Positions 10,413 to 31,590 are shown, counted from the first letter of the stretch. The stretch is 64,000 nucleotides of DNA from Nitrospira sp. (GCA_016784355.1 JADHUV010000006.1:28372-92371); one strand, 5' to 3'. Notes: generated by a model not told the origin, from the sequence alone. Translations and numbers: made by a program.

Positions 10413-10457
10413 TATAAGCTAATTAAAATTTGACCGTATATATAAAATTTCTTAATT

Positions 10458-12732: not shown

Positions 12733-12764
12733 AACTAGATATGGATCTTAAGGAATTTATATAG

Positions 12765-13310: not shown

Positions 13311-13822
13311 CACTGGTACAGGGTTTCTTTATTTACTTTGCCGTAGCAATGACAGTTCTGGCGCTGCTGGTTGTAACCAGAAAAAGCCCGATGCATAGTG
13401 TCCTGTGGATGCTGGCTTTCTTTTTTCATACTGCGGGTTTATATCTGTTTTTAAACGCAGAATTTCTTGCTGCCGCGCAGATTATTGTCTATGCAGGCGC
13501 TATAATGGTGCTTTTTATCTTTGTTATTATGCTCCTTAACCTTAAGAAGGAGGAGACTGAGAGAAAACTTCAGAAGCATTGGGTCGCGGGTTTGGTTGTG
13601 AGTCTGGTGCTTATGGCTGCCATGGTAAAGATCCTCAGCGGCATAACAGTATTGCCGCCGCTTGGAGAGTATTCTATTCAGTTTGTACAGCTTCAGGGCA
13701 ACCTGATGACTATTGGAAAGGTGTTGTATACACAGTATCTGCTGCCGTTTGAGATCGCGTCTGTTGTGTTGCTTGTGGCGATAATCGGAGCAGTAGTGCT
13801 TGCAAAAAAGAGGATTTTATAA
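13307..13822 (+). CDS. nuoJ: NADH-quinone oxidoreductase subunit J
   Basis: Hydrophobic 171-aa protein in the conserved position. ATGA overlap with nuoI. Confidence 0.9.
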   Translation: MTLVQGFFIYFAVAMTVLALLVVTRKSPMHSVLWMLAFFFHTAGLYLFLNAEFLAAAQIIVYAGAIMVLFIFVIMLLNLKKEETERKLQKHWVAGLVVSLVLMAAMVKILSGITVLPPLGEYSIQFVQLQGNLMTIGKVLYTQYLLPFEIASVVLLVAIIGAVVLAKKRIL

Positions 13823-13859
13823 TGAAGGGTCAGGTTACTGGTCTTTTAATCAGGAGGCA

Positions 13860-14165
13860 GTGTTGGTTCCGTTAAGCTGGTATATAATTTTAAGCGCAGT
13901 GCTCTTTTGCATAGGGGTCTTCGGATTTCTTGCCAGGCGTAATATGATCGTTATGTTTATTTCTATCGAGCTTATGCTTAATGCTGTAAATATAAGCCTG
14001 GTTGCCTTCAGTCACTACCTGCAGCAGGTTACGGGTCAGATACTGGTTTTCTTTGTTATTACCGTGGCCGCGGCCGAGGCTGCTATAGGTCTTGCGATCC
14101 TGATTGCGTATTACAAAAACAATCCTACTGTTAAGGCTGATGATGCTAGCCTGATGAAAGGATAG
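13860..14165 (+). CDS. nuoK: NADH-quinone oxidoreductase subunit K
   Basis: Three TM helices. 'MFISIELMLNAVNISLVAF' NuoK motif. Start set to GTG 13860 or TTG 13863 after GGAGG at 13853-13857, not the 13800 ATG, which would overlap nuoJ. Confidence 0.85.
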   Translation: MLVPLSWYIILSAVLFCIGVFGFLARRNMIVMFISIELMLNAVNISLVAFSHYLQQVTGQILVFFVITVAAAEAAIGLAILIAYYKNNPTVKADDASLMKG

Positions 14166-14175
14166 GGATTTAATT

Positions 14176-16098
14176 ATGATTAAATATACGCTGATACCGC
14201 TGCTGCCGCTGATCGCTTTTGTGATTAATATTCTATTCGGCCGCAATTATATCCGGGACAAGGCACACTGGGTTGCCATCCCCGCCATTGTCGGCTCCCT
14301 TCTGCTTGCAATCAGTGCTTTTTTTGATGTGGCAGGCGGTAATGTAATCAATATTAATGTGTATGACTGGATCGTCTCGGGAGATTTCAATGTCTCTGCA
14401 GGTCTGATGATAGATCAGCTTACCGCAATTATGCTCTTGGTTGTGACTATATGCGGTACTCTTATATTTATTTATTCAGTCGGCTATATGCATGGAGATG
14501 AAGGGTATTATCGTTTTTTTGCGTATTTGTGCCTCTTTATATTTTCAATGCTTGTGCTGGTCATGGGTAATAACTTTCTTGTTATGTACTTCGGCTGGGA
14601 GGCAGTAGGACTTTGTTCGTACTTTTTGATCGGATTTTGGTTTAATAAAAAATCAGCTGGCGATGCTGGCAAAAAGGCCTTTATAGTAAACCGGTTCGGC
14701 GACTTTGGCTTCGGACTGGGTGTTATTTTGATATTTCTTACCTTCGGTACCCTTGATTTTGTCGGTGTATTCGGTCAGGCCGGCAGCTTTGCAGGGCAGA
14801 CCATTAATTTCCTCGGGTGGGAAGTTGATCTTGTTACGCTTATCTGTCTGCTTCTTTTCTGCGGTGCGGTGGGTAAGTCAGCTCAGCTTCCGCTGCATGT
14901 CTGGCTTCCTGATGCTATGGAAGGACCGACTCCTGTTTCCGCTCTTATACACGCCGCAACTATGGTAACTGCGGGTGTGTTTATGGTTGCAAGGTGTAAT
15001 CCGCTTTTTATAGAGTCTCCGATTGCGATGAACACGGTAGCGATAGTCGGAGGGGTGACCGCTATCTTTGCAGCAACTATTGCACTGGTTCAAAATGACA
15101 TCAAACGCGTTATAGCATATTCAACAGTGAGTCAGCTCGGCTATATGTTTCTGGCGCTCGGTGTGGGTGCCTTTTCTGCCGGAGTCTTTCATTTATATAC
15201 TCATGCATTCTTCAAGGCCCTCCTGTTTTTGGCCTCAGGCAGCGTGATTCACGCATTGCATAACGAGCAGGACATGCGTAATATGGGCGGTCTTAAAAAG
15301 TATATGCCTATTACATACGCGGTATTTATCATCGGGACTTTGAGTATTACCGGTATATTTCCCTTTGCCGGATTCTTCAGTAAGGATGAGATTCTCTGGC
15401 GTGCATTTCTGGCCGGCGACATGGGAAAATTCCTATGGCTCCTCGGAACAATTGCCGCGCTTCTGACATCTTTTTACTCCTGGAGGCTTATATTTATGAC
15501 ATTCCACGGTGACTTTCGCGGTACCTCGGAGCAGGAGCATCATCTGCACGAATCGCCAAAGGTTATTACCGTGCCCCTTATGATTCTGGCTGTCGGTGCA
15601 GTAGCGGCCGGCTGGGTCGGCATACCACCGCTCTTTATGGAGCATGGGGATAAGATCGGTGAATTTCTAGCACCTGTGCTGGGACATCCATCCGGACATG
15701 GTACTCATGCGCAGGAATGGTTTGTTGTCGGCATCTCCTCATTGGTTGCCGTGCTTGGCGGTATTGTTGCATATGTAATGTATGTGAAGAAGACGGATAT
15801 TGCAGGGAAAATTGCATCTGCTTTCAAGCCGGTTCACGCCCTGCTTTATAATAAATATTATGTAGATGAACTGTATGACACGACACTTATTCAGCCTGTT
15901 ATGAAGGCCTCGGACAAGGTCATTCTTGGATTTATTGATAAAACGATTATAGAAGGTATTGTTAACGGTATACCTAATGTCATAGGCGTGTTCAGCAGAA
16001 AGCTCAGGACGATACAGACCGGGGTTTTCGGGAGTTACGGACTGGCCATGACAGTTGGCGCACTGTGTATCATAGGATACCTGTTTTTTCAGAGGTAG
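14176..16098 (+). CDS. nuoL: NADH-quinone oxidoreductase subunit L
   Basis: 640-aa antiporter-like subunit. 'WLPDAMEGPTPVSALIHAATMVTAGV'. Long C-terminal horizontal-helix region. Confidence 0.95.
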   Translation: MIKYTLIPLLPLIAFVINILFGRNYIRDKAHWVAIPAIVGSLLLAISAFFDVAGGNVININVYDWIVSGDFNVSAGLMIDQLTAIMLLVVTICGTLIFIYSVGYMHGDEGYYRFFAYLCLFIFSMLVLVMGNNFLVMYFGWEAVGLCSYFLIGFWFNKKSAGDAGKKAFIVNRFGDFGFGLGVILIFLTFGTLDFVGVFGQAGSFAGQTINFLGWEVDLVTLICLLLFCGAVGKSAQLPLHVWLPDAMEGPTPVSALIHAATMVTAGVFMVARCNPLFIESPIAMNTVAIVGGVTAIFAATIALVQNDIKRVIAYSTVSQLGYMFLALGVGAFSAGVFHLYTHAFFKALLFLASGSVIHALHNEQDMRNMGGLKKYMPITYAVFIIGTLSITGIFPFAGFFSKDEILWRAFLAGDMGKFLWLLGTIAALLTSFYSWRLIFMTFHGDFRGTSEQEHHLHESPKVITVPLMILAVGAVAAGWVGIPPLFMEHGDKIGEFLAPVLGHPSGHGTHAQEWFVVGISSLVAVLGGIVAYVMYVKKTDIAGKIASAFKPVHALLYNKYYVDELYDTTLIQPVMKASDKVILGFIDKTIIEGIVNGIPNVIGVFSRKLRTIQTGVFGSYGLAMTVGALCIIGYLFFQR

Positions 16099-16104
16099 AG
16101 ATAA

Positions 16105-17655
16105 ATGGACAATGTAATAATGAATAACCTTGATTACCCGATACTGTCGTGGACCGTGTTACTTCCGGTATTCGGCTCGCTGCTGCTGCTGTTTATGCAG
16201 AATGCAAGGGCGGTGCGCTGGACGGCATTGATCTTTACGCTTCTGACATTTGCAATATCCCTGCCTCTTCTTACGCAGTTTGATAAGGGTACTCACTTGA
16301 TGCAGTTTGTTGAAAAGCATGAGTGGATACCTTCGTGGGGGATAAATTACATTATCGGTATTGATGGTATAAGTATCCTGTTTGTATTTCTGACCACGAT
16401 ACTAAGTATACTTTGCGTGCTGGTCTCATGGAATTCCATAAATACAAGGGTGCGCGAGTTTCATATTGCGATTCTTGCAATGGAGGCCGCTATGGTCGGG
16501 GTCTTTGTATCTCTCGACTTTTTCCTGTTTTATCTTTTCTGGGAGGCCATGCTGATCCCGATGTTCCTGCTTATAGGGGTCTGGGGCGGGGCGAATAAAT
16601 TATACGCCTCGATCAAGTTTTTCTTATACACCCTTGTTGGAAGTGTACTTATGCTGGTCGGCATAGTTGTTCTTTATTTTGCCGGTGGCAAGACGCTGGA
16701 TATTCTTACGCTTAGCACTCTTAGTCTGCCGATGGGCCTGCAGTTTTGGCTCTTCCTTGCATTCTTTGCGGCCTTCGCCGTAAAAGTGCCGATGTTTCCG
16801 GTGCATACCTGGCTTCCGGATGCGCACACTGAGGCACCAACCGCCGGCAGTGTTATCCTTGCCGGAGTACTGATTAAGATGGGCGCCTATGGTTTCCTCA
16901 GATTTTCGATGCCCATGCTTCCTGATGCCACCAGGCTTTTCATTCCGGTACTCATGGTACTTTCGGTTGTGGCGATTATTTATGGTGCACTTGTATGTTT
17001 TGCCCAAAAGGATTTCAAGAGACTTATAGCTTATTCCAGTGTCAGTCATATGGGTTTTGTAACTCTCGGACTCTTTGCGATGAATACGCAGGGTGTTGAG
17101 GGCGGTATATTGCAGATGATCAATCACGGTATCATTACCGGAGCGATGTTTTTAATGATAGGAATGATCTATGAAAGGACTCATACCAGGGTCATATCGG
17201 AATACGGCGGCTTTGCTAAAATTGTGCCGTGGTATGCCGGACTATTTTGTATACTGACATTCGCATCTGTCGGTCTGCCGGGTACAAACGGTTTTGTCGG
17301 AGAGTTCCTGATAATTTTCGGTGCCTTCAAGGCTAAACAGATTATTGGAGTTCTTTCAGCCTTAGGTATTATCCTGGGCGCAGGTTACATGCTCCGGCTT
17401 TATCAGGATATATTCTTTCAGGACGCCGCGCCTGATTTTGAGAAGAAGGGTAAACACCCGGTATGGGATCTTGATATGAGAGAGGTTCTTACGCTCGCTC
17501 CATTGCTGCTGCTTGTGTTCTGGATAGGCTTTTACCCGAACACGTTTCTCAGCTATATGCATGCCTCGGTCGAGCATCTTATAAGCCGTGTTAATTACAC
17601 CGCCTATGCCGGACAGGAAAATCTAATAGCTAAATATATTATGGAGATCTTTTAA
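16105..17655 (+). CDS. nuoM: NADH-quinone oxidoreductase subunit M
   Basis: 'HTWLPDAHTEAPTAGSVILAGVLIKMGAYG' antiporter-like motif. Confidence 0.95.
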   Translation: MDNVIMNNLDYPILSWTVLLPVFGSLLLLFMQNARAVRWTALIFTLLTFAISLPLLTQFDKGTHLMQFVEKHEWIPSWGINYIIGIDGISILFVFLTTILSILCVLVSWNSINTRVREFHIAILAMEAAMVGVFVSLDFFLFYLFWEAMLIPMFLLIGVWGGANKLYASIKFFLYTLVGSVLMLVGIVVLYFAGGKTLDILTLSTLSLPMGLQFWLFLAFFAAFAVKVPMFPVHTWLPDAHTEAPTAGSVILAGVLIKMGAYGFLRFSMPMLPDATRLFIPVLMVLSVVAIIYGALVCFAQKDFKRLIAYSSVSHMGFVTLGLFAMNTQGVEGGILQMINHGIITGAMFLMIGMIYERTHTRVISEYGGFAKIVPWYAGLFCILTFASVGLPGTNGFVGEFLIIFGAFKAKQIIGVLSALGIILGAGYMLRLYQDIFFQDAAPDFEKKGKHPVWDLDMREVLTLAPLLLLVFWIGFYPNTFLSYMHASVEHLISRVNYTAYAGQENLIAKYIMEIF

Positions 17656-19106
17656 TGAATACGGAAGTAGGGATAAGCCTGCGGGATGCCATTCCATTTA
17701 TTCCGGAGTTGGTAATTATATGCACCGGGCTTATTGCCATGATGCTTGATCTTGTTGTTCGCAAGAAGGGACCTGTGGCCGCCTTTGTGGTCTTTGGAAC
17801 ACTCGTTGCCGGATATGCCATGTGTAAACTCAATGGCTTTAATGAGCCTCAGAGTGCATTTCTTAATATGTTCATACTTGATGGATATGCAGGCTTTTTT
17901 AAGCTCATATTCTTTATCAACCTGATTCTCACTGTTTGTATTTCTTATAGATATATGATTATTGAAAAATCGTCATATGGAGAATATTACTCTCTGCTTA
18001 CCTTTGCTACGGCAGGTATGATGGTAATGGCCTCGGCAACTGATCTGATTACACTATATCTTGGTCTTGAGCTGATGGCGCTGTCTACATACATACTGGC
18101 TGGACTGATGAGAAATGACAGACGTTCCAATGAGGCGGCGCTGAAGTACTTTTTTCTTGGTGCCTTTTCCTCTGCATTTCTTCTGTACGGTATTTCCCTT
18201 ACATACGGAATGACAGGAACCACGAACCTCAATGAGATCTCGGCCACAATTCAGAATCTGAACATTGCCGGTAACCCGATATTATTTCTCGGCCTTATAT
18301 TTATTATGACGGCCTTTGCCTTTAAGATCGCCCTTGCACCTTTTCACATGTGGGCACCGGATGTGTATGAAGGTGCGCCAACATCAGTGACCGCCTTCAT
18401 GTCGGTTGGCCCGAAGGCTGCCGGGTTTGCAGTTTTGGGCAGGGTACTGTTTGAGGCCTTCGGCAGTATGCAGGTGCAATGGACTAATATACTTATCCCG
18501 CTTGCTCTTTTAACCATGGCGGTCGGAAGCATTGTTGCACTCTCGCAGACAAACATAAAGAGGATGCTGGCATATAGCTCTGTTGCGCATGCCAGTTATA
18601 TGTTGCTCGGCGTGATTGCAGGTACACCGGCGGGCCTTGTAAGTACGATTAATTACCTGCTGATTTATACATTTATGAATATCGGGGCCTTTGCGATCGT
18701 GATTCTTCTGAGGAGTGAGGGTTTTCAGGGTCAGGATCTGGACGACTACAGGGGGCTTGCCAAGAGTAATCCTCTGGCAGCCGCGCTTATGCTGGTTTTT
18801 ATGTTTTCCCTGACAGGAATACCTCCTACGGCTGGATTTATCGGAAAGTTTTATGTCTTTATGGAATTGATAAATGCGGATAAAACATACCTTGCAGTAA
18901 TTGCCGTTGCTTTCAGTGCAATATCAGCATTCTTTTATCTGCGCGTTGTTATGTATATGTATATGAAGGACTCAGATGAGCCTCGCACGATCTCTTGTTC
19001 GCCTTCAATGAATGTTGCCTTAGCCGTTACAGCGCTGATGGTGATTGTACTTGGAATTTACCCGGAGCCTGTGCTTAATTACGTAAAGACAGTTGTTTTC
19101 GGGTAA
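17655..19106 (+). CDS. nuoN: NADH-quinone oxidoreductase subunit N
   Basis: TAATG overlap with nuoM. 'FHMWAPDVYEGAPTSVTAFMSVGPKAAG' motif. Confidence 0.95.
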   Translation: MNTEVGISLRDAIPFIPELVIICTGLIAMMLDLVVRKKGPVAAFVVFGTLVAGYAMCKLNGFNEPQSAFLNMFILDGYAGFFKLIFFINLILTVCISYRYMIIEKSSYGEYYSLLTFATAGMMVMASATDLITLYLGLELMALSTYILAGLMRNDRRSNEAALKYFFLGAFSSAFLLYGISLTYGMTGTTNLNEISATIQNLNIAGNPILFLGLIFIMTAFAFKIALAPFHMWAPDVYEGAPTSVTAFMSVGPKAAGFAVLGRVLFEAFGSMQVQWTNILIPLALLTMAVGSIVALSQTNIKRMLAYSSVAHASYMLLGVIAGTPAGLVSTINYLLIYTFMNIGAFAIVILLRSEGFQGQDLDDYRGLAKSNPLAAALMLVFMFSLTGIPPTAGFIGKFYVFMELINADKTYLAVIAVAFSAISAFFYLRVVMYMYMKDSDEPRTISCSPSMNVALAVTALMVIVLGIYPEPVLNYVKTVVFG

Positions 19107-19231
19107 TAAACAGTTAGCATAATAGAACTATTTATATATAATAATTACTTATCACTCTAAGGCTTGAGTTATACAATTCGGGTAGTATATAATTATTTTC
19201 GCTGTATTTATAAACACGTAGATAGCAAAAA

Positions 19232-19316
19232 GCCGAAGTGGTGGAATTGGTAGACACGCACGATTGAGGGTCGTGTGGGGCAACCTATGCGGGTTCGAGT
19301 CCCGCCTTCGGCACCA
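19232..19316 (+). tRNA. tRNA-Leu (anticodon GAG), type II with a long variable arm
   Basis: Hand-folded cloverleaf. Acceptor GCCGAAG/CTTCGGC. Anticodon stem CACGA/TCGTG with loop TTGAGGG. T-arm GCGGG-TTCGAGT-CCCGC. 13-nt variable arm. Encoded CCA. Confidence 0.85.
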
Positions 19317-19405
19317 TTTTAAAAGCAGGAATCATTATCCTTTATATATATCTAAAAAAATAAAAAAAGTCGGTAAATGTTAAATAAAATTAAAGAAGGT
19401 ATTGC

Positions 19406-21235
19406 ATGAGTAAACAGAGCTTTCAGGTCGTTATCCCGGATTATAAGTACTGGAAACAAAATATCAAGTGCCAGACAGGCTGTCCTGTAGATACAGATTC
19501 CAGAGGATATGTAAGGGCCATTGCAGATGGTGATTATGAGAAGGCGTACTGGATTGCAAGGACGCCAAATCCGCTTGCCTCTATTTGCGGCCGTATTTGT
19601 GCAGCTCCGTGTGAACTGGCATGCCGCAGGGCATCGATAGATTCTGCGGTTTCTATCAGGGCGCTTAAGAGGTTTGTTACTGAAAAGTACGGCGTTGAGG
19701 TCTACGGAGACAAAACCAGGTTTGCAGAAAATTTCAAGGAAAAATTCAAGGCAGCTGGCAGCGGTATAATGGGCATTGCAGCGGAAACAGATAAGCCCGT
19801 TTCTATTATAGGCGCGGGTCCTGCAGGTCTGACCTGTGCGCATGAGCTTGCACTGATGGGCTATAAGCCTGTTATATATGAATTGGAGAAGGTCGCCGGC
19901 GGAATGACCGCTGTTGGAATACCCCCGTACAGGCTTCCCAGAGAACTTATAGAGGCTGAAGTTGAGGCTATTAAGGCTCTCGGCGTTGAGATTAAGCTTG
20001 GCATTACGGTTGGCAAGGATGTGCAGATTAAGGATCTTTATGACAAGTCTGCAGCGGTGCTGATCGCGGTGGGTGCAAAGAAATCTAAAATGATCCCCAT
20101 GGAAGGCGCTGAAAATCAGGGTGTTTACGGCGGAGTTGATTTCCTGCGTGATGTGTTTGTAGGCAATGAAGTGAAGATTGGCAAGAAGGTTGTTGTAATA
20201 GGCGGCGGTAACGTGGCATATGATGTTGCAAGGACAGCGGCAAGGCAGAAGGGCGTAGAATCTGTATCGCTGGCCTGTATTGAAAAATATGAGCAGATGC
20301 TTGCTGACCATATAGAGATTGAAGAAGGTGAAGAAGAGGGTGTAGACAGGATCAACAGTTATGGCCCTAAGGTCATAGCTGCTGATAAAAACGGTAAGGT
20401 CAAATCTATTACCTTCAGAAGGTGTATCTCTGTTTTTGATGGTGAGGAGCGTTTTAACCCTCGCTATGATGAGTCTGATGTGATTACCCTGGATGCAGAT
20501 ACAATTTACTTTGCTATTGGACAGTCCACGGATATTTCCTTTCTTAAGGATTCAGGTCTTGAAGTAGAAATGAATGAATGGGGTCATGTCAAGACAGGGC
20601 AGGATCAGATGACATCTTCTTTGTCCGGCTTGTATGTTGCGGGTGATATGGCTTATGGGCCAAGGCTTGTAATAGATGCCGTTGCACATGGTAAAAAGGC
20701 TGCGCTTGCAATACATGCACATATCAGTGGTAAGGCTGTATCTGAGAGTATTAATGAAAGCCATGCCATTAGCTATGAAAAGGAAGTAGCCTGTAATTCT
20801 GTGGATCATATGCCTGACTTTGAAAAGATCTGCAGAAAGCCGGTACCTGCTGAGCCGCTTGCCCAGAGAATGAAGAGTGTGTCCGCTCCTGTAGAGGCCG
20901 GATTTAAAAAGGAAGACGCAGAAGAACAGGGCGGAAGGTGTCTGAACTGCGCTGTTAATACAATATTCAACGGCGACAGGTGTATCCTGTGCGGCGGGTG
21001 TGCGGATGTATGTCCCGAATTCTGTCTCAGACTGGTAAGCCTGGAGAATATAAAGACGAGCGAAAGCCTGACCGAGTTGTACCGTAATCGTTACGGAGAG
21101 GTTCCACAGGGCTGGGGTTCAGCAATAATTAAAGACGAAGACAGGTGCATAAGGTGTGGACTTTGCGCTGAGAAGTGCCCTGTCGATGCAATATCAATGG
21201 AAAGATTTATATGCAAGGAGGTAGTAAGTAAATGA
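19406..21235 (+). CDS. GltD-like NAD(P)H-dependent flavin oxidoreductase fused to a C-terminal 2x[4Fe-4S] ferredoxin domain
   Basis: N-terminal Cys cluster 'CQTGCPVDTD...ICGRICAAPCELACRR' as in the glutamate synthase small subunit. Dinucleotide fold 'IIGAGPAGLTCA' and 'VVVIGGGNVAYDVAR'. C-terminal 'CILCGGCADVCP' and 'CIRCGLCAEKCP'. Confidence 0.8.
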   Translation: MSKQSFQVVIPDYKYWKQNIKCQTGCPVDTDSRGYVRAIADGDYEKAYWIARTPNPLASICGRICAAPCELACRRASIDSAVSIRALKRFVTEKYGVEVYGDKTRFAENFKEKFKAAGSGIMGIAAETDKPVSIIGAGPAGLTCAHELALMGYKPVIYELEKVAGGMTAVGIPPYRLPRELIEAEVEAIKALGVEIKLGITVGKDVQIKDLYDKSAAVLIAVGAKKSKMIPMEGAENQGVYGGVDFLRDVFVGNEVKIGKKVVVIGGGNVAYDVARTAARQKGVESVSLACIEKYEQMLADHIEIEEGEEEGVDRINSYGPKVIAADKNGKVKSITFRRCISVFDGEERFNPRYDESDVITLDADTIYFAIGQSTDISFLKDSGLEVEMNEWGHVKTGQDQMTSSLSGLYVAGDMAYGPRLVIDAVAHGKKAALAIHAHISGKAVSESINESHAISYEKEVACNSVDHMPDFEKICRKPVPAEPLAQRMKSVSAPVEAGFKKEDAEEQGGRCLNCAVNTIFNGDRCILCGGCADVCPEFCLRLVSLENIKTSESLTELYRNRYGEVPQGWGSAIIKDEDRCIRCGLCAEKCPVDAISMERFICKEVVSK

Positions 21236-21705
21236 GCGAAGAGACCCGGGATAAAGACGGGGTATCAAGGCGTGACTTTCTGGGCCTGGCTGCGTTCGGA
21301 ACGGCTATACTGGGAGTTGTGTCCTCTGTAGCGGGCAGCCTCAGGTATATCAAGGCCAACGTATACTTCGAAGAATCAAAGAAATTTAAGGTAGGAACGG
21401 TTGAAAACTTCCCTATCGGCAGCGTAAAAAAGCTTGATGACAAAAATGTTTTCATCTTTTCTGAAGAAGCAGGTCTCTTTGCGATATCTGCAATATGTAC
21501 ACATCTGGGCTGTATTGTTTCACCTGTAGATTTTGGTTTTCAGTGTCCCTGTCACGGATCGCAGTTTAATCATATCGGCAACGTAATCGGCGGCCCTGCT
21601 CCTAGAGCTTTAGAGTGGTTTGAGATTAGTCAGGAAATAGACGGCTCTCTTGCCATTGATACAGCTAAGACAGTGTCTCAGGGAACAAAGTATTTATTTG
21701 CGTAA
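21232..21705 (+). CDS. Rieske [2Fe-2S] protein with a Tat signal
   Basis: 'SRRDFLGLAAFGTAILG' twin-arginine signal. Rieske boxes 'CTHLGC' and 'CPCHGS'. Confidence 0.9.
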   Translation: MSEETRDKDGVSRRDFLGLAAFGTAILGVVSSVAGSLRYIKANVYFEESKKFKVGTVENFPIGSVKKLDDKNVFIFSEEAGLFAISAICTHLGCIVSPVDFGFQCPCHGSQFNHIGNVIGGPAPRALEWFEISQEIDGSLAIDTAKTVSQGTKYLFA

Positions 21706-21730
21706 TCAATAATTTAATTTATATAGAGGT

Positions 21731-23302
21731 ATGAGATTCATGGACAACTCAAACAAGACAGGACTTGCACAGTTTGCAGATAATCTGAAATCTGTAAAAA
21801 GTTCATTTGTCGGTTCCTTTAGCCGCGGTGGCTGGCCCACGTCTGATAAGGGCAGGACATCGACAGTGGTGAACAACTTCTTTCTTCACCTTCACACCGC
21901 AAAGACACATATAAACACGCTTAAGCCGTCCTATACACTTGGTATGGGACTTATCTCGTTTTTTCTGCTGGTGATAGCATTTATTTCAGGCGGTTTCCTG
22001 ATGGTTTATTACAGTCCGTCAACAACAACGGCCTTTAATGCTGTCAAGGACATTAACTTTGTCGTATTTGGCGGACAGTTGATGAGAAATATTCACAAGT
22101 GGTCGGGCGAGGCCATGATCATTTTTGTAATACTGCACATGGTAAGGATTGTATATACCAATTCCTATAAGCAGGGGCGTGAGTTTAACTGGGTAATCGG
22201 CATTGTGCTTCTTATCCTTACATTTGTATTGAATCTGACAGGGTATATGCTTCCCTGGGATCAGCTTTCATACTGGGCGCTGGTTATCGTGGCCAATATT
22301 GCGGCTGCGCCAAAGGAACTTACTGACATATTTAATGGTATGTTCGGTATAACACTGCCTGATATCGGCGGAGCTACTAAAGAGGTATTGCTTGGCGGTA
22401 CTGAACCCGGACAGGAGTCACTCACAAGGGTTTATCTGCTTCATATACTGCTTCTGCCTCTTGCAATTTGTGTCTTCCTTGGAGTGCATTTCTTCAGGAT
22501 CAGAAAGGACGGCGGCTTGACAAGGCCGGCAAATGTTTCCGCTGGCTCTGGTGAGAGCATCATCTCTCCGCCTGAAAAGAAGGGCGGTATATTCCCGACA
22601 CATAAGACCTACGGTCTGATGGAGCTTTCCAAGGGAAGAACACCGGCCGTGGACACAGACATTGAAAATACGGTCACAAGCTGGCCAAATCTTTTCATTG
22701 CCGAGATCGCGGTCTTTATGTTTACGCTTGCAGCAGTAGTGGCGTACTCATACTTTTTTGATGCACCTTTAAAAGAATACGCCAACCCTATGATCCCTGA
22801 GAATCCGGCCAAGGCGCCATGGTACTTTCTGGGGCTGCAGGAACTGGTTTCCTACTCTGCCTTCATGGGTGGCCAGGGTCTTCCAGGCCTGGCGCTGGCG
22901 GGTCTGATAGCGATACCGTTTCTTGATCGTGAAAATAGGGATATTGGAATATGGTTTACCAATAAACAGGGTAAGGCTATCGCCATTGAGTCCTTTATAG
23001 TAGGCAGTGTCGCTGTTATCGGTACTCTAGCATTTGTTGTGACACAGGGCTGGTTCAGAGAGTGGTGGCCTGAGATTCATCAGCTCTGGATCGTTGCTAT
23101 TAACCCCGGGAATCTGCTACTTGGATTTGTAATGGTTTATACCCTGTGGGTAATAAAAAGGACCAACTCTACCAGGATGGGCGCTATATCACTGATTACC
23201 TTCTTCCTGGTATGTTACGTGATATTGACTTATACCGGCACCGTTCTCAGAGGACCTAACTGGGTATTCTACTGGTCACCAAGTGATTGGCCGATTCATT
23301 AA
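21731..23302 (+). CDS. Cytochrome b (b6-like N-terminal half fused to a subunit-IV-like C-terminal half with an extension)
   Basis: Helix B His pair (..IHKW..LHM..). Helix D 'HILLLPLAICVFLGVH' with the b6-type spacing. C-terminal half carries a PEWY-like 'APWYFLGLQE'. 523 aa. Confidence 0.9.
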   Translation: MRFMDNSNKTGLAQFADNLKSVKSSFVGSFSRGGWPTSDKGRTSTVVNNFFLHLHTAKTHINTLKPSYTLGMGLISFFLLVIAFISGGFLMVYYSPSTTTAFNAVKDINFVVFGGQLMRNIHKWSGEAMIIFVILHMVRIVYTNSYKQGREFNWVIGIVLLILTFVLNLTGYMLPWDQLSYWALVIVANIAAAPKELTDIFNGMFGITLPDIGGATKEVLLGGTEPGQESLTRVYLLHILLLPLAICVFLGVHFFRIRKDGGLTRPANVSAGSGESIISPPEKKGGIFPTHKTYGLMELSKGRTPAVDTDIENTVTSWPNLFIAEIAVFMFTLAAVVAYSYFFDAPLKEYANPMIPENPAKAPWYFLGLQELVSYSAFMGGQGLPGLALAGLIAIPFLDRENRDIGIWFTNKQGKAIAIESFIVGSVAVIGTLAFVVTQGWFREWWPEIHQLWIVAINPGNLLLGFVMVYTLWVIKRTNSTRMGAISLITFFLVCYVILTYTGTVLRGPNWVFYWSPSDWPIH

Positions 23303-23340
23303 AACTATGACTATTAAACTGGACTATAAGGTGGAGGAAC

Positions 23341-24741
23341 ATGAATAGCAGATTTTACTTATCATTAATGCTCATATCATCGCTGGTGCTCATGGCGTTT
23401 CTGGCAATAGCGTTTAACCGTGAGATGACCCCTGTCTGGAAGGACTATCAGACAGAGTATAAAGAGACACTTATAAAAAATGCCAAGGATGACGGCACTC
23501 GTGAGCGGGCTGAGAAGATTCAGGTCGGGCTGCAGCAGATCTATATTAAGGCATTAAATAAGTCAGATCGCTGTACCAGTTGTCATGCAGGAGTTGAAAA
23601 TCCGCTGATGGCTGCTGCAGAAGTGCCATATAAGCAGCATAGCGGCAATTACCTGAAAAATCATCCCCTGCCAAAGTTTGGCTGTACACTTTGTCATCGC
23701 GGACAGGGAAGGGCGTTGAACATTGCCGAGGCTCATGGTGAGGAACATCAGCACTGGGACTTTCCGATTGTTCCGGCAAAGTATATACAGAGCTCATGTG
23801 CATCTTGTCATGATTACAAAATGCTTGAGACCGAGGGCGGCGAAAAGGTAGCAAAGGGTGAAAAACTTTTCAGGGAAAAAGGCTGTCTCGGCTGTCATAA
23901 GCTTAACGGTGTAGGCGGTGCTCTTGGTAAAGACATAGCCGGTATCGCAAATAAGGCATACTATTATTTCTCAATGGCAGCAGTAGTAGGCGAGAGAAAT
24001 ATGTATTCCTGGATCAAGCAGCATTTTGATGATCCCCGAAAAATCGTTCCGGAGAGCCAGATGAGGGCATTTCTGACGGATGAGGAAGCCGATCTTCTTA
24101 CAACCTATATGCTTACCTTCAGGACAGATGAAATGCCCAGAAGTTACAGGTTGATAAAGAATATTGATAAAGTAGCTACGGATGGAAAATCTATGTATAC
24201 AGCTTACTGCTCTGCATGTCACAGCGATGGCAAGACCAGCGTATATGATGAGATTTTTGCCAGGACAATTCCGGCGATCAGAAATCCTTCGTTTCTTAAG
24301 ACTATTAGTAATAGCGAACTGAAAAGGATAGTCAAGGAAGGGCGTAAGGGTACACAGATGACTGCATGGAAGAGTGAAGCTGCAGGCCTTACTGAAAAAC
24401 AGATTGATGAGATTGTGAAGTATGTGGCCAAAGACCGTCCGTCTGAGAAGTCCAGACCATTTAATGTTGCCAAAATTAAAAGTGATATCGAACGCGGGGC
24501 GGAGATTTACAATAATCGCTGTGCGCTTTGTCATGGTGAAGAGGGTAAGGGCGGAGAGAATCTGCTCGGCATGACTCTTAGAGATAGTGCACTTAGTCCT
24601 GAGTTTATAGCTATTACAGTACGTGATGGAAGAAAGGGTACCCCAATGGTACCGTTCGGCAATGGTGGAATCGGCCTGAGTAATCAGGAAATAGCTGATA
24701 CCGTAGCATATGTAAAGAACCTGACAAATGATAAGAAATAG
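23341..24741 (+). CDS. Hexaheme c-type cytochrome (membrane-anchored)
   Basis: Six CxxCH motifs: CTSCH, CTLCH, CASCH, CLGCH, CSACH, CALCH. N-terminal hydrophobic anchor. Confidence 0.85.
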   Translation: MNSRFYLSLMLISSLVLMAFLAIAFNREMTPVWKDYQTEYKETLIKNAKDDGTRERAEKIQVGLQQIYIKALNKSDRCTSCHAGVENPLMAAAEVPYKQHSGNYLKNHPLPKFGCTLCHRGQGRALNIAEAHGEEHQHWDFPIVPAKYIQSSCASCHDYKMLETEGGEKVAKGEKLFREKGCLGCHKLNGVGGALGKDIAGIANKAYYYFSMAAVVGERNMYSWIKQHFDDPRKIVPESQMRAFLTDEEADLLTTYMLTFRTDEMPRSYRLIKNIDKVATDGKSMYTAYCSACHSDGKTSVYDEIFARTIPAIRNPSFLKTISNSELKRIVKEGRKGTQMTAWKSEAAGLTEKQIDEIVKYVAKDRPSEKSRPFNVAKIKSDIERGAEIYNNRCALCHGEEGKGGENLLGMTLRDSALSPEFIAITVRDGRKGTPMVPFGNGGIGLSNQEIADTVAYVKNLTNDKK

Positions 24742-24760
24742 ATTCCGGAGGATAGATCAG

Positions 24761-25588
24761 ATGGGAAGATTTAATACAAGATGTAAATTGTTTTTACCGC
24801 TGGCGGGTATCCTGATGTTTGCGATGGCCCTGGTTCCTGCAGCATACGGGCAGGAAGATGAGGATGCAGCTTATGATGCGCTTATTGCAAAGGGCAAGGC
24901 TGCCTATAATGTACGCTGCGCCTTATGTCACGGTAAAGACGGAGACGGCAAGGGCGAAATGAAGTCAGTGACAAGGGTAGAAAAGACCGGGCGTACTATT
25001 GTTGTAACTCCCTGGGATTTTACTCGCGCGGTATTTAGGTTTCGTACCACACCGACAGGCTGTTTACCTTCAGATGCAGACCTTGAGAGGACTATCAGAA
25101 AAGGTATATCAGCATCCCTTATGCCTGCGCATGGCCATATAGATGGTGATGAGATAGAAGGTATTATCGAGTACATTAAATGGTTTTCTGAAGACTGGGA
25201 CGAGTTTGACCCAGATGATGAGTCCTGTTTTCCTGTAGCGATAAACAAGCCTGAGTTCGTAGGGTCTGCTGACTCGATAGCCCGCGGAGAAGTGCTCTTT
25301 AAAAAGAATAAGTGTTTTGAGTGCCACGGTGTTGACGGTAAGGGTGATGGAGATAAGGCTAAAGATCTCAAAGATGACTGGGGCAATCGTATTCTTCCCT
25401 TTAACTTCACTACCGGCAATATGAAGAGAGAATCTACTGCTGAGGCAGTTTATTTGACACTCGCATCCGGTCTTGACGGCACTGCAATGCCGGGATACAA
25501 TGAGGCGATCAAGGAAGAAGAGAAATGGCATATTGCTTCCTATGCGCTTAAGCTTATGGGACTGATAAAGAGCGAAGACGGGCACTAG
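24761..25588 (+). CDS. Diheme c-type cytochrome (two class-I-like domains)
   Basis: CALCHGKDGDG and CFECHGVDGKG motifs. Signal peptide. Start moved to ATG 24761 (GGAGG 9 nt upstream), which avoids overlap with the upstream stop. Confidence 0.8.
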   Translation: MGRFNTRCKLFLPLAGILMFAMALVPAAYGQEDEDAAYDALIAKGKAAYNVRCALCHGKDGDGKGEMKSVTRVEKTGRTIVVTPWDFTRAVFRFRTTPTGCLPSDADLERTIRKGISASLMPAHGHIDGDEIEGIIEYIKWFSEDWDEFDPDDESCFPVAINKPEFVGSADSIARGEVLFKKNKCFECHGVDGKGDGDKAKDLKDDWGNRILPFNFTTGNMKRESTAEAVYLTLASGLDGTAMPGYNEAIKEEEKWHIASYALKLMGLIKSEDGH

Positions 25589-25601
25589 TATAATTGATGA
25601 G

Positions 25602-25634
25602 TCCCCCCTCTGATGCAGAGGGGGGATTTTTTTT
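25602..25634 (+). terminator. Rho-independent terminator
   Basis: 9-bp G/C stem TCCCCCCTC...GAGGGGGGA followed by T8. Confidence 0.8.
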
Positions 25635-25733: not shown

Positions 25734-26357
25734 ATGAACGAATTTAAAAAAAATGTCCTGATAATCTTTGCCCATCCTGCATTGCAGAAATCACGGGTAA
25801 ACAGTAAGTTGATCAAATATGTCAATGATATGCAGGGTGTAACCTTTCATGATCTGTATGAAATCTATCCGGATTTTCATATCAATGTAGCAAAGGAACA
25901 GGCTCAGCTGCTAAAGCATGATATTATTGTATTTCATCACCCTCTTTTTTGGTTCAGTGTGCCGGCGTTATTAAAAGAATGGATGGACCTGGTGCTGGAG
26001 CACATGTGGGCCTATGGGAGAAAGGGCAGTGCATTGAAGGGGAAAAAGCTTCTTAGCGTAATTACTACAGGTGGTCGGGAATCTCTCTTTAGTGAGAAGG
26101 CATACAATAGGCATCCTGTTAAGGAGTTTTTGTATCCTGTTGCTCAGACTGCTTATATTTGCGGTATGGACTATCTGCCTCCTTTTGTAGTTCATGGCAC
26201 TCATACTATTACACAGGAAATGATAGCTGCTCATGGCGAGGACTACAAAGAAATAATAACGGCTCTGAGGGATGATACGATAGATCTTGAAAAGGCCGCT
26301 GAAATGCCGAGGCTTAATAGTGATATGAACGATGTATTAAAGGGGCGCAAACTATAA
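25734..26357 (+). CDS. kefG: Glutathione-regulated K+ efflux ancillary protein, NAD(P)H:quinone oxidoreductase-like (KefG/KefF)
   Basis: Collinear similarity to E. coli KefG from memory: 'VLIIFAHP...HDLYEIYPDFHI...EQA.L..HD.IVF.HPL...S.PALLKEW.D'. Confidence 0.8.
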   Translation: MNEFKKNVLIIFAHPALQKSRVNSKLIKYVNDMQGVTFHDLYEIYPDFHINVAKEQAQLLKHDIIVFHHPLFWFSVPALLKEWMDLVLEHMWAYGRKGSALKGKKLLSVITTGGRESLFSEKAYNRHPVKEFLYPVAQTAYICGMDYLPPFVVHGTHTITQEMIAAHGEDYKEIITALRDDTIDLEKAAEMPRLNSDMNDVLKGRKL

Positions 26358-26358
26358 T

Positions 26359-28257
26359 ATGCAAGGGGATGGCTTTTTCTTTCAGGCATTTGTGTATCTT
26401 ACGGCAGCAGTGGTCTCTGTGCCCATTGCAAAAAAGGCCGGGCTTGGATCAGTCCTCGGATATCTGCTGGCCGGAATTATAATAGGTCCTTTCGGTTTGA
26501 GCTTTACAGGTCAGGGCGGACAGGATGTGATGCATTTTGCAGAGTTCGGTGTTGTAATGATGCTCTTTCTGATTGGCCTGGAATTGCAGCCTTCATTGCT
26601 TTGGCGGCTCCGGGGACCAATCCTTGGAATGGGCGGTCTTCAGGTAGGGCTGAGTGTAGCCCTGATAACCTCAATGGCGATGTTGATGGGGATGACATTT
26701 AAGGTCTCTCTTGCCATAGGCATGACTCTTGCGCTTTCCTCAACGGCGATTGTGCTTCAGACTTTGAAAGAGAAGAGTCTTATGAAGACTGATGCGGGGC
26801 AGAGCTCTTTTGCTGTTCTGCTATTTCAGGATATTGCTGTCATACCGATGCTGGCAATAATGCCATTGCTTGCTTCTGCCGATTTAGCCGATACCCACAT
26901 ACAGGCTGGACATAACGGAACTGTCTGGATAGACGGTCTTCCGGGCTGGGGACATGCACTTGCTGTAATAGCGGTTATAGCGGCCATTATCCTGGCAGGG
27001 ATGTTTCTCGTCCGGCCATTTTTCAGGGCCATCGCAAAGACACAGCTAAGAGAATTATTTACTGCAGCAGCCCTGCTGCTTGTAATAGGGATAGCGCTGT
27101 TAATGTCAAAGGTTGGACTTAGTCCTGCACTGGGAACATTTCTGGCGGGAGTAGTATTGGCAAATAGTGAGTACAGACATGAACTTGAGGGAGATATAGA
27201 ACCTTTCAAGGGCTTACTGCTAGGTCTGTTTTTTATTGCGGTCGGGTCATCGATTGATTTTGGACTCATTTCTTCCAATCCCGGACAGATAGGACTGATA
27301 GTGGGTGGTCTGATGTGTGCAAAGCTGGTGATATTACTTGTTCTAGGCAGGGTGTTTAAGATGGGCAACGATCAAAACATACTCTTTGCATTTTCTCTGG
27401 CACAGGGCGGCGAGTTTGCATTTGTGCTGTTTTCATTTGCCGTACAGAATAATGTTTTTAGTGAAAGTCTGGCCAATCCCTTAATAGCTGCAGTTGCAAT
27501 TTCTATGGCTTTAACTCCTCTTCTGCTTCTCGTCAATGAAAAAGTCTTTCAGCCGCGCTTTGGTACAAAAGAAAGCGAGTCACGCGAGGCGGATAAGATT
27601 GATGAAGAAAATCCTGTTATTATTGCGGGATTCGGCAATTTCGGAAGTATCATCGGTAGGCTTCTCAGAGCCAATGATGTAAGCATAACAGTCCTTGAAC
27701 AGGATTCTGATAAAGTGGAATTGCTGCGAAAGCTTGGCCTTAAAGTATTTTACGGCAATGCCGCACGTCATGACCTCCTGCATTCAGCAGGGGCTGAGAA
27801 GGCTAAACTGCTGGTGCTGGCCGTAGGAGATAGTGAAAAAAATCTTGAAATCTGCAATGTCGCCAGAAAACACTTTCCGCATTTGATTATCTTTGCCCGT
27901 GCATCCGGCCGCTCACAGGCTTATGAACTTCTTGATGCAGGAATTGATCATGTTTACAGGGAGACACTTGATACCTCACTTAAGGCAGGCATAGATGTTT
28001 TGCGTGCTCTTGGGTTTAGATCTTATCATGCCCATCGCATAACTAAGACCTTCAGGCTTCATGATGAGGAATCTATTGATGAGCTGCGGCACCTGCGTCA
28101 TGACCAGAAAAAATATATCGGTCACGCACGGCAGCGAATAGAGGATCTGGAACAACTTTTATTATCCGAGCTTAAAGAGGCCCACGAACATCATGATGCC
28201 GGCTGGGATACCGTTTCTATGCGTGAGGAATTTGGCGGTAAGCAGGCGGATAAATAA
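26359..28257 (+). CDS. kefC: Glutathione-regulated potassium-efflux system protein (CPA2 antiporter + KTN/TrkA-N domain)
   Basis: 12-13 TM CPA2 core. 'IIAGFGNFGSIIGRLL' Rossmann KTN domain. Immediately follows kefG. Confidence 0.85.
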   Translation: MQGDGFFFQAFVYLTAAVVSVPIAKKAGLGSVLGYLLAGIIIGPFGLSFTGQGGQDVMHFAEFGVVMMLFLIGLELQPSLLWRLRGPILGMGGLQVGLSVALITSMAMLMGMTFKVSLAIGMTLALSSTAIVLQTLKEKSLMKTDAGQSSFAVLLFQDIAVIPMLAIMPLLASADLADTHIQAGHNGTVWIDGLPGWGHALAVIAVIAAIILAGMFLVRPFFRAIAKTQLRELFTAAALLLVIGIALLMSKVGLSPALGTFLAGVVLANSEYRHELEGDIEPFKGLLLGLFFIAVGSSIDFGLISSNPGQIGLIVGGLMCAKLVILLVLGRVFKMGNDQNILFAFSLAQGGEFAFVLFSFAVQNNVFSESLANPLIAAVAISMALTPLLLLVNEKVFQPRFGTKESESREADKIDEENPVIIAGFGNFGSIIGRLLRANDVSITVLEQDSDKVELLRKLGLKVFYGNAARHDLLHSAGAEKAKLLVLAVGDSEKNLEICNVARKHFPHLIIFARASGRSQAYELLDAGIDHVYRETLDTSLKAGIDVLRALGFRSYHAHRITKTFRLHDEESIDELRHLRHDQKKYIGHARQRIEDLEQLLLSELKEAHEHHDAGWDTVSMREEFGGKQADK

Positions 28258-30465: not shown

Positions 30466-31590
30466 TTAATTTGAGGCTTGTGTTAATCTGGCGACCTGAA
30501 CTATTTCATTCATTATTGACTGATACTTCTCATCGCTGTAACTGCTGGCTTCACTAAGAGCGATGGATAACGGATCAGTTTCAGATATAAGGCATTTGTT
30601 GATAAAAAGTTCAAGCAGTTCAGGATCCAATACGCTGCCTCCCATGGATGTGAGCATTTTTACTGCCTCCTCTTTGCTCGATTTATCACGGTAGGGCCGG
30701 TTGCTTGTGATGGCATCATAGATGTCCGCCATGGTTACTATTCTTGCCTCTAAGGGGATTTCTTCTGCCCTTAGTTTCTCCGGGTAGCCGGTTCCGTCAA
30801 AGCGTTCGTGGTGGTAGCATATGATATTTACAATACGCTCTGAAAGTCCGATATGCCTGGCCACATTCGCTCCCCGTACCGGATGCTCTCTTATGAGTGT
30901 TTGTTCTTTATGGTCTAGAGGTCCATTTTTATTGAGAATATGTGCTGGTATGTGAATCTTTCCCAGGTCATGCAGGGCGCTTCCGTATTTGATATCCTTT
31001 TTTTCTTCCGTGCTCATTTTAGCTGCATTCGCGAGCATCAGTGAATAAACAGCCACCCTGTCACAGTGTCCGAGTGTGTAGAGATCCTTCAGTTCAACTG
31101 CCTGAACCATTGAAAGCAGGGCAGCCTTATTTTCCGTGTGAAGTGAACATGCAAGCTGGTGTTGTTTAATTACCTCTATAACATTTTTAAACAGGTGATC
31201 CCCTGTCCATGGCTTCATGATCACCCTTGAGACTATGCCGTTGTTAATTGCATCTATAGCAGTCCTCAGGTCGGCATCTGTCGTAATAAGGATTCCCATT
31301 GTTTTCGGAGAAATCTCTCTTATGTACTCGAGCAAGTCAATCCCTCTAGTATCAGGCAGATCATTATCAGAAACTATCACGGCAATTTTTTCACTTCTAA
31401 TGATCTTAAGGGCATCCTTAGCATTTTCAGCCTTAAGCAGACGTAGTCCACTGTCTGAAAATAGAGTTTCCGCGGCCTTTAATATATAGTGTCTATCCCC
31501 TGTAAACAGGATAGTCCCTGATAATGCTGGCTCTATGTTGAAAAAATAGTTCATAAATTTTACACTGCTTGTCCTGGCATATGTAAACAT
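30466..31590 (-). CDS. Response regulator with HD-GYP c-di-GMP phosphodiesterase domain
   Basis: Receiver 'IAVIVSDNDLPDTRGIDLL'. 'HDLGKIHIP' and 'HHERFDGTGYP' HD-GYP signatures. Confidence 0.85.
   Translation of the reverse strand: MFTYARTSSVKFMNYFFNIEPALSGTILFTGDRHYILKAAETLFSDSGLRLLKAENAKDALKIIRSEKIAVIVSDNDLPDTRGIDLLEYIREISPKTMGILITTDADLRTAIDAINNGIVSRVIMKPWTGDHLFKNVIEVIKQHQLACSLHTENKAALLSMVQAVELKDLYTLGHCDRVAVYSLMLANAAKMSTEEKKDIKYGSALHDLGKIHIPAHILNKNGPLDHKEQTLIREHPVRGANVARHIGLSERIVNIICYHHERFDGTGYPEKLRAEEIPLEARIVTMADIYDAITSNRPYRDKSSKEEAVKMLTSMGGSVLDPELLELFINKCLISETDPLSIALSEASSYSDEKYQSIMNEIVQVARLTQASN

Follow-up and report, generated by a model that had tools for sequence, protein, structure and literature searches.

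A Rieske/cytochrome b operon of Nitrospira sp. with a conserved NfnB/GltD-like flavoprotein as a candidate link between quinol oxidation and NAD(H)

Can a Rieske/cytochrome b complex pass the low-potential electron of a quinol to nicotinamide adenine dinucleotide (phosphate), NAD(P)+? The question has been open since 2011–2013, when such a reaction was proposed for bacteria that live by anaerobic ammonium oxidation (anammox), and it is raised anew by a locus in a 64,000-nt stretch of Nitrospira sp. (GCA_016784355.1, JADHUV010000006.1:28372-92371; this whole stretch is called the window hereafter). Here, five open reading frames (ORFs), all on the + strand, span positions 19406-25588. The original prediction, made from the nucleotide sequence alone, had described them as a Rieske/cytochrome b complex with a flavoprotein resembling the small subunit of glutamate synthase (GltD) and two multihaem cytochromes c, and had ranked them as a candidate for an undescribed system. 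In our follow-up analysis, the operon was found to encode a b6f-type Rieske/cytochrome b complex of the APWY clade, whose gene set always includes a cytoplasmic flavoprotein binding flavin adenine dinucleotide (FAD). Our leading interpretation, held with a confidence somewhat short of even, is that quinol is oxidized at the Qo site and that the low-potential branch is wired to NAD(H), with the forward direction being the likelier one where a high-potential acceptor is at hand.

The ORFs lie at the coordinates originally given for them. Domains were assigned by Pfam and NCBIfam profile searches of the window proteins, which returned those expected for each subunit, and six and two CXXCH haem motifs were counted in the two cytochromes c, which bears out the five-gene composition as first claimed. 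The features on which the following sections draw are:

19406..21235, + strand: NfnB/GltD-like FAD flavoprotein with a C-terminal 2x[4Fe-4S] ferredoxin domain, 609 amino acids (aa); Pfam Fer4_20, Pyr_redox_2, Fer4
19469..19624, + strand: cluster-binding cysteines of Fer4_20 (CQTGC; CGRICAAPCELAC), with C22, C26, C61, C65, C69 and C73 invariant in the alignment
19805..19828, + strand: FAD-binding GxGxxG (IIGAGPAG), by motif and alignment
20201..20284, + strand: pyridine-nucleotide fingerprint GGGNVAYD ... SLACIE, from alignments with Kuenenia, Armatimonadota and StnC-like sequences
20939..21181, + strand: CLNC pair and two CxxCxxCxxxCP motifs of the C-terminal ferredoxin domain (Pfam, alignment)
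21232..21705, + strand: Rieske [2Fe-2S] protein, 157 aa, with Tat signal SRRDFLG, transmembrane (TM) anchor at residues 16-34, CTHLGC and CPCHGSQF
21731..23302, + strand: fused cytochrome b6/subunit IV, 523 aa, about nine TM helices (Pfam, NCBIfam, alignments)
21872..21895, + strand: NNFFLHLH motif with His53, aligned to His43 of Kuste4571
21932..21952, + strand: YTLGMGL at the CxGG position of haem cN, without Cys (b6 has YCLGG, Kuenenia FTWCMGG)
22814..22825, + strand: Qo-site motif APWY, replacing PEWY
23341..24741, + strand: membrane-anchored hexahaem cytochrome c, 466 aa, with six CXXCH; Pfam matches and Protein Data Bank (PDB) matches to CcoP
24761..25588, + strand: dihaem class I cytochrome c with two CXXCH; 286 aa if the start is at 24728

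Conserved linkage of the flavoprotein with Rieske and cytochrome b genes

The closest homologues of the flavoprotein, with identities of 65-76%, belong to Thermodesulfovibrionia, other Nitrospirota (several magnetotactic candidates among them) and metagenome-assembled genomes (MAGs) of Desulfobacteraceae. As these are the nearest relatives, and as the window proteins are identical to those of a MAG labelled "Nitrospira sp.", an anammox origin of the window was rejected. A scan of genome contigs with the single flavoprotein, the peptide patterns of which were too specific, returned 11 loci, and the Kuenenia sp. operon (L014) was found via the Rieske sequence of PDB entry 9rk4. The operon was present in all 12 related genome loci, and an Armatimonadota locus (L015) also carries it. 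The five-gene order was unchanged in L001-L007 (the contig of L007 ends after cytochrome b), L012/L013, L016 and L017. Because the same order recurs in 12 independent loci of other genomes, a chance arrangement was dismissed. In a Magnetobacteriaceae MAG (L008, 9001-15755), the flavoprotein of which is 48% identical to that of the window, the succession flavoprotein-Rieske-cytochrome b is retained, and the hexahaem and dihaem proteins are replaced by one cytochrome of 891 aa, which has ten CXXCH motifs.

The scan of metagenomes was seeded with an alignment of divergent flavoproteins. At an identity of at least 38%, adjacent genes for Rieske protein, cytochrome b and subunit IV were found in 14 of the 15 judgeable loci, L031 being the exception. 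Adding two loci at 37% (L035 and L037) and the lower-identity L043, Rieske and/or cytochrome b genes were adjacent in 16/18 judgeable loci; the contig of L035 stops 290 bp past the flavoprotein gene, so that only the start of cytochrome b is visible, and L037 holds none of these genes. This adjacency was seen in none of the approximately 59 remaining, more distant metagenome loci, and Rieske and cytochrome b genes were also missing beside the 32% identical homologues in three SAR86 genomes. Homologues of 31-37% identity that lack these neighbours fall into separate groups. In a library clustered at 50% identity, considered here for the flavoprotein sequences themselves, most of the 150 nearest representatives are approximately 600 aa long, and nearly all of the 70 inspected ones carry both C-terminal ferredoxin motifs.

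Three gene orders were observed among the linked loci, namely flavoprotein-Rieske-b in the clade of the window, Rieske-flavoprotein-b in Kuenenia, and flavoprotein-b-IV-Rieske in L043, and in most loci the Rieske start codon overlaps with the stop codon of the flavoprotein gene or directly adjoins it. The linkage is thus strongly conserved in four named phyla and in metagenomes, across a shuffling of the gene order. A lack of co-conservation, or a flavoprotein serving a partner elsewhere, had been named as findings that would speak against the original prediction. What we found were co-conserved, overlapping or abutting genes, and no gene for an NfnA- or GltB-type partner either in the operon or in any examined locus.

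The flanking genes, on the other hand, differ between all genomes. In the Desulfobacteraceae MAG (L012, 8548-19815, and L013), a regulator of the Rrf2 family precedes the five genes, and on their 3' side come a CarboxypepD_reg-like protein, two more dihaem cytochromes c and a cbb3-type oxidase (COX1 and FixO). A general link to a haem-copper oxidase was considered and rejected, as such genes were seen only in L012/L013. In L016 (1-9877 and 16308-18969), the operon lies amid genes for NHL-repeat proteins, CarboxypepD_reg-like proteins and large multihaem cytochromes (MtrC-like, with paired CXXCH), surroundings which hint at periplasmic or extracellular electron transfer.

In the window itself, a complex I operon at 8972-19106 (+) consists of nuoA, B, C, D, H, I, J, K, L, M and N only. 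As nuoD ends at 11672 and nuoH starts at 11743, there is no space for nuoE, F and G, and the NADH-oxidizing module is missing. In L003-L005, L008, L012, L016 and L017, the sequence on the 5' side of the operon, covered for up to 9-10 kb, holds no nuoN. For this reason we rejected a functional connection with the neighbouring nuo genes, and we regard the adjacency in the window as incidental.

Subunits and their relation to the anammox complexes

Both CxxCxxCxxxCP motifs of the ferredoxin domain are present in 119 of the 120 closest flavoprotein homologues. In an alignment of six flavoproteins, each 36-69% identical to the window protein, 16 cysteines are invariant, which is enough for four [4Fe-4S] clusters. 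The two-cluster ferredoxin fusion originally described was found at the C-terminus; however, the protein probably carries four clusters in total and not two. Since topology analysis found neither a hydrophobic or TM segment nor a signal peptide, the flavoprotein is predicted to be cytoplasmic, in agreement with the soluble subunit first proposed.

Its nearest solved relatives are StnC (8oh5), NfnABC (9bov, 9n5u), NfnB (4ylf), NfnI (5jca), Xfn, DPD and GltD, with E-values of 1e-75 to 1e-32 against the PDB modules and a Foldseek probability of 1.0, and in the AlphaFold2 monomer the FAD/NAD core reached a predicted local distance difference test score (pLDDT) of 80-95. The protein stayed below every curated NCBIfam cut-off, the top match being PRK12771 with 387 bits against a required 516. 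With NfnB, StnC, Xfn, GltD and DPD it shares the fold, the two-cluster Fer4_20 domain, the FAD-binding GxGxxG and the nucleotide-binding GGGN(V/T)A.D. In contrast to these proteins, it has the additional C-terminal two-cluster ferredoxin domain and no NfnA/GltB partner, and other residues stand where these have the Arg-Arg pair for binding the 2'-phosphate.

This replacement concerns the segment that follows GGGNVAYD. Here, the window clade reads SL(A/V)C(I/M)E..E(Q/E)MLAD, and the same site is (V/I/L)YRR..EMP(A/V) in Kuenenia, the Armatimonadota protein, L043, NfnB and StnC. The NADPH-type YRR site is thus absent, as seen from a comparison of the window (SLACIEKYEQMLAD) with Kuenenia (SIVYRRTKEEMPA). 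When the Arg pair is lost and the second Rossmann strand acquires a Glu at its end, a selectivity for NADH over NADPH is usually implied. Because C(I/M)E stands in place of the Arg pair, the window clade probably prefers NADH to NADPH.

The Rieske protein has a complete bc-type ligand set of four Cys and two His and an SF pair within CPCHGSQF. Its top match among solved structures is the Kuenenia Rieske protein 9rk4, and the Ser/Tyr motif of the latter suggests that it is Kuste4569. A Ser plus Tyr/Phe signature was found in 25 of 26 loci and suggests a high-potential Rieske cluster. According to the Ser/Tyr rules of Baymann et al. (2012), an SF pair corresponds to 200-230 mV. Hauser et al. (2025, PMC12954380) measured +303 and +335 mV for the Kuenenia Rieske proteins, the latter value belonging to Kustd1480, which is of the SF type.

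In the fused cytochrome b, the N-terminal half matches Cytochrome_B/Cytochrom_B_N_2, and the C-terminal half, which represents subunit IV, is ExtQ-like. Alignment to b6, the best solved match (E 1e-34), begins at window residue 68 and places the haem b ligands at H122/H136 and H238/H253, with the H-x13-H and H-x14-H spacing of b6. PEWY is not present in the subunit IV half; instead there is APWY, a recognized variant by which the protein is assigned to the APWY clade. Two extra helices sit between helices F and G. The CxGG cysteine of haem cN is absent, the only two Cys of the window cytochrome b lying elsewhere, and haem cN is therefore probably absent from the window clade.

Among the loci compared, the CxGG cysteine was present only in L014, L015, L026 and L043, and was absent in the window clade and most metagenomic members. 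The YRR motif of the flavoprotein was confined to loci with a CxGG cytochrome b (three of these four), and all 18 CxGG-less loci were of the Glu type, in a comparison that comprises few loci that are not independent. A perfect correlation between YRR and CxGG was rejected, as it is broken by L026, in which CLE occurs together with CxGG.

A further residue of interest is His53, the equivalent of which is invariant in 22/22 flavoprotein-linked cytochrome b sequences at pairwise identities down to approximately 40%. The stretch around it aligns with mitochondrial cytochrome b from residue 13 onward, where a surface helix on the N side lines the Qi site; the histidine was placed there using alignment coordinates and the bovine sequence. 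In the AlphaFold3 models of Hauser et al. (2025, PMC12954380), a novel haem b is located between the two His43 of the cytochrome b dimer, and Arg247 lies near the propionates of this interfacial haem. As Arg258 of RIRKDGG in the window is conserved and is the counterpart of Arg247, and His53 aligns with His43, the comparison suggests His53 as a candidate ligand of an extra interfacial haem b.

In nearly all loci, the gene after subunit IV encodes a multihaem cytochrome c, with 6-10 haems. In the hexahaem protein of the window, an N-terminal anchor is combined with four haem motifs at close spacing and with two class I domains resembling CcoP, and 32% identity to the hexahaem subunit of Kuenenia was found over the 150 N-terminal residues. 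No match to the cytochrome f or c1 families rose above the cut-off (Cytochrom_C1 stayed below it with E 7e-4). The dihaem protein is approximately 40% identical (E 3e-39) to chain B of 6H5L, a HAO-like octahaem structure of Kuenenia stuttgartiensis of which chain B is the small cytochrome, presumably the dihaem partner Kustc0457. It is thus a second anammox-like part. A HAO-type Multi-haem_cyto match was not obtained among the Pfam-annotated window ORFs (part of those of at least 120 aa were scanned).

For the core subunits, the identity between the window and Kuenenia sp. (L014) is 34% over the full length of the flavoprotein, 37% for Rieske, 40% for cytochrome b and 41% for subunit IV, so that what the original prediction had called a reminiscent composition is true homology, subunit by subunit. 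With the complexes Kuste4569-4574 and Kustd1480-1485 of Kuenenia stuttgartiensis, the window operon shares an NfnB/GltD-like flavoprotein with 2+2 iron-sulfur (FeS) clusters, the b6-type ligand spacing, APWY, nine TM helices in cytochrome b plus subunit IV, a Ser/(Tyr,Phe) Rieske protein, the equivalent of His43, the Arg of RxRKDGG, and a multihaem cytochrome c instead of cytochrome f. There are also differences. Cytochrome b and subunit IV are fused in the window and split in Kuenenia, where subunit IV has five helices and the two extra helices are appended C-terminally rather than inserted between F and G. The window lacks the CxGG cysteine, has C(I/M)E instead of YRR, and begins with flavoprotein-Rieske-cytochrome b rather than Rieske-flavoprotein-cytochrome b. 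The C-terminal part of its hexahaem protein is made up of two class I domains, the place of the HAO-like octahaem protein (Kuste4574) is taken by a dihaem cytochrome c, and its host is not an anammox bacterium.

Cytochrome b6f has the same haem-ligand spacings, and the window Rieske protein is of the PetC type. However, the window complex lacks cytochrome f and the haem cN Cys, is fused and extended by two helices, has APWY and not PEWY, includes a flavoprotein in its operon, and carries the His53 stretch upstream of the b6-aligned region. From cytochrome bc1 it differs in the helix D spacing, which is 14 and not 13. Geobacter ExtP and ExtQ (NF040969, NF040970) were the best NCBIfam matches of the two cytochrome b halves, but with 210 bits where 290 are required, and 47 where 150 are, the window protein is not a member.

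The label of an undescribed system did not hold, since anammox relatives have been published since 2011 and the linkage in the APWY clade or subfamily G was noted between 2011 and 2017. Kartal et al. (2011, 2013) reportedly described the anammox operons and proposed bifurcation to NAD(P)+, and a co-migration of the anammox subunits is reported from de Almeida et al. (2016). Structures of the Rieske proteins and AlphaFold3 models were added by Hauser et al. (2025). In another work, Kao and Hunte (2014, PMC4122944) defined an APWY clade of delta-proteobacteria, Nitrospirales and Planctomycetes with no characterized member. According to Dibrova et al. (2017, PMC5600118), large NAD(P)-binding FeS oxidoreductases accompany the cytochromes b of subfamily G "in many other cases", and the long cytochromes b of a clade G' lie in conserved operons of unknown function. 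Equating the APWY clade with subfamily G/G' (Dibrova et al. 2013, 2017) is our own suggestion and is not stated in the sources used; thus combined, it comprises long CxGG-less and short CxGG-bearing forms of mixed phyla, with NAD(P)-binding FeS oxidoreductases alongside. As far as their available parts go, these phylogenomic surveys hold no description of the five-gene operon, the switch in the nucleotide motif or the invariant His. In a genome paper on Thermodesulfovibrio, Rieske proteins go unmentioned. The kind of system is therefore already known, and for the form with five genes in Nitrospirota and Desulfobacterota no description was found, the supplementary trees of Dibrova et al. (2017) aside.

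Proposed electron flow and its alternatives

In the sequence of events that we propose, the flavoprotein would dock on the cytoplasmic (N) face of the cytochrome b dimer, and menaquinol would be oxidized at the Qo site. The high-potential electron would pass from the Rieske protein (Ser/Phe type) to the hexahaem and on to the dihaem cytochrome and a terminal oxidase or reductase. The low-potential electron would move from haem bP to haem bN, probably to the extra haem b between the two His53 of the dimer, and then through four FeS clusters and FAD to NAD+, in place of quinone reduction at Qn. Two turnovers would yield one NADH. A comparable haem path leading on to four FeS clusters and FAD was modelled by Hauser et al. 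(2025, PMC12954380), who argued that a high-potential Rieske protein in combination with menaquinone lets haem bP reduce NAD(P)+.

With potentials of -70 mV for menaquinone and -320 mV for NAD(P), we estimate that the low-potential branch costs approximately 250 mV per electron, and that a Rieske cluster near +300 mV yields approximately 370 mV. As the low branch also has to pay the membrane potential, the reaction would be near equilibrium and reversible, so that NADH and reduced cytochrome c could also reduce menaquinone. The forward, NADH-forming direction appears more likely where O2 or another high-potential acceptor is available. Such flow is favoured because the high-potential Rieske signature occurs in menaquinone-using lineages (Thermodesulfovibrio uses menaquinone; Elling et al. 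2025), and in the Desulfobacteraceae MAG because the cbb3 oxidase genes lie directly downstream.

Several points weigh against this interpretation. At full proton-motive force, the membrane potential makes forward turnover marginal. The FeS domains of the AlphaFold2 flavoprotein monomer have a pLDDT below 50, so that the inter-cluster geometry is unreadable. The C(I/M)E motif, in the form C-L-E, is also common in GltD-like proteins that are unlinked to Rieske/cytochrome b. Haem cN belongs to the modelled Kuenenia path and is missing in the window cytochrome b, and the window flavoprotein has a Gly where Kuenenia has Arg511, which was placed near the extra haem. The use of menaquinone is taken from relatives and is not readable from the window. 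No family member is known to have a demonstrated activity, bifurcation being a hypothesis throughout the family, and Kao and Hunte (PMC4122944) suggest that APWY complexes run in reverse.

The flavoprotein might also serve as an entry point for NADH. Electrons would then pass from NADH through the FeS chain to haem bN and to menaquinone at Qn, and the complex would act as a complex III into which a non-pumping NADH:quinone reductase is built. We consider this unlikely, though it is the best placed of the alternatives. It would serve organisms whose complex I lacks NuoEFG, which is true of the nuo operon in the window and of the Nuo complexes of cultured Thermodesulfovibrio (Frank et al. 2016); the NADH-type nucleotide motif would fit catabolism, the reaction would be strongly exergonic, and FNR on b6f is a known precedent for an N-side flavoprotein. 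However, a high-potential Rieske protein together with menaquinone implies b haems of very low potential, which would be needless here. The invariant His moreover falls in the stretch placed at the Qi-lining helix, and if it binds haem there, the quinone pocket is probably occupied. In the anammox homologues, Kartal et al. reportedly saw no clear Qn site.

A lower probability still is given to confurcation, the reversal of the proposed reaction. Here, NADH and reduced cytochrome c, aided by the membrane potential, would reduce menaquinone at Qo, and high-potential periplasmic donors would feed the quinone pool. The near-equilibrium energetics estimated above would permit it, and multihaem, MtrC-like and NHL proteins adjoin the operon in L016. 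The APWY motif has itself been proposed as a mark of reverse operation, but in Kao and Hunte (2014, PMC4122944) this proposal is based on one Geobacter gene cluster. Confurcation would also spend NADH on a quinol of lower energy, and the cbb3 oxidase in the L012/L013 cluster argues for forward flow there.

A transmembrane NADH:cytochrome c wire, in which NADH would deliver electrons to the periplasmic c haems by way of the FeS clusters and both b haems, without net quinone chemistry, is improbable. The AlphaFold3 anammox models (PMC12954380) do show short distances from haem bP to a c haem, at 26-28 Å versus 38 Å, but 26 Å is still too far for direct transfer, and the Qo motif, the Rieske protein and subunit IV, all superfluous for a wire, are strictly conserved. 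Finally, it is very improbable that the flavoprotein is merely co-located with the Rieske/cytochrome b genes, be it as a soluble enzyme in its own right (Nfn-, sulfide-dehydrogenase- or GltD-like) whose partner is encoded elsewhere, or as a partner of the NuoEFG-less complex I: its closest solved relatives are indeed soluble NfnB, StnC and GltD modules and the nuo operon lies 300 nt upstream, but the linkage is kept across phyla and gene orders with often overlapping genes, nuoN is not near the operon in seven other loci, no locus has an NfnA- or GltB-like gene, the unlinked 31-37% homologues form separate groups, and the anammox subunits are reported to co-migrate.

Returning to menaquinol oxidation at Qo with NAD(H) on the low-potential branch, a more far-reaching version can be formulated, which we regard as doubtful. 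The complex would be the physiological menaquinone-NAD(H) link of Nitrospirota and Desulfobacterota whose complex I lacks NuoEFG; it would be NADH-specific, free of haem cN and bifurcating when a high-potential acceptor is present, and would replace reverse flow through complex I. On this view, the family would be much larger and mostly of the NADH type, with the anammox enzymes forming an NADPH-specific side branch.

Operon boundaries, neighbouring genes and significance

The operon is delimited by the following features:

19232..19316, + strand: tRNA-Leu(GAG), found by ARAGORN between nuoN and the operon (upstream boundary)
25599..25629, + strand: intrinsic terminator-like hairpin with a 14-bp stem (8 G-C) and a T-run (downstream boundary)

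Promoter-like sites were found at 19114-19193, on the 5' side of the tRNA gene. The genes of the flavoprotein and the Rieske protein overlap by 4 nt (ATGA), followed by gaps of 25 nt between Rieske and cytochrome b and 38 nt between cytochrome b and the hexahaem gene. The last junction is a 14-nt overlap if the dihaem gene starts at 24728, or a 19-nt gap with the NCBI start at 24761, which makes the protein 11 residues shorter. All five genes had been called translationally coupled; with later junctions that are gaps or depend on the chosen start, strict coupling is established for the flavoprotein-Rieske pair only. A composition profile showed an unremarkable base composition and no compositional island. 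Reverse-strand ORFs that overlap the operon (e.g., 19352-20311) were rejected as spurious, the + strand genes having strong homologues.

Further observations were made elsewhere in the window. Directly past the terminator, a KefF-like flavodoxin-fold protein stands beside a KefC-like Na/H-exchanger-TrkA_N protein (25734-28257, +), and the two look like a glutathione-gated K+ efflux pair. With regards to respiratory genes, a succinate dehydrogenase/fumarate reductase-like set of cytochrome b, flavoprotein and FeS protein is followed by a 250-aa multihaem cytochrome c of c7/MtrC-like type (37919-42187, +). A WYL-WCX regulator adjoins a HIRAN-domain protein (4064-5600, -), and a role in DNA damage or defence is often associated with such pairs. 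Signalling proteins of the HD-GYP type (HD_5) occur three times within 20 kb (30466-31590, -; 46841-49477, +; 50052-51122, +), two with receiver domains and one with HAMP, PAS and GAF. TelA (toxic anion resistance), an NfeD-like protein and flotillin/SPFH form a cluster at 60644-63788 (-), and a 589-aa ORF at 51200-52969 (+) had no Pfam match at E <= 1e-5.

The locus extends a known, biochemically uncharacterized family and does not by itself decide the mechanism. It presents, in a simpler version of five genes that is common outside anammox bacteria, the machine that was proposed for them, and the comparison across the family points to an invariant His as a candidate haem ligand, a dispensable haem cN, and two types of nucleotide site. 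If the proposed function is true, the complex would be a route of reverse electron transport without complex I, and the modelling of NADH supply would change for many anaerobes and gradient organisms.

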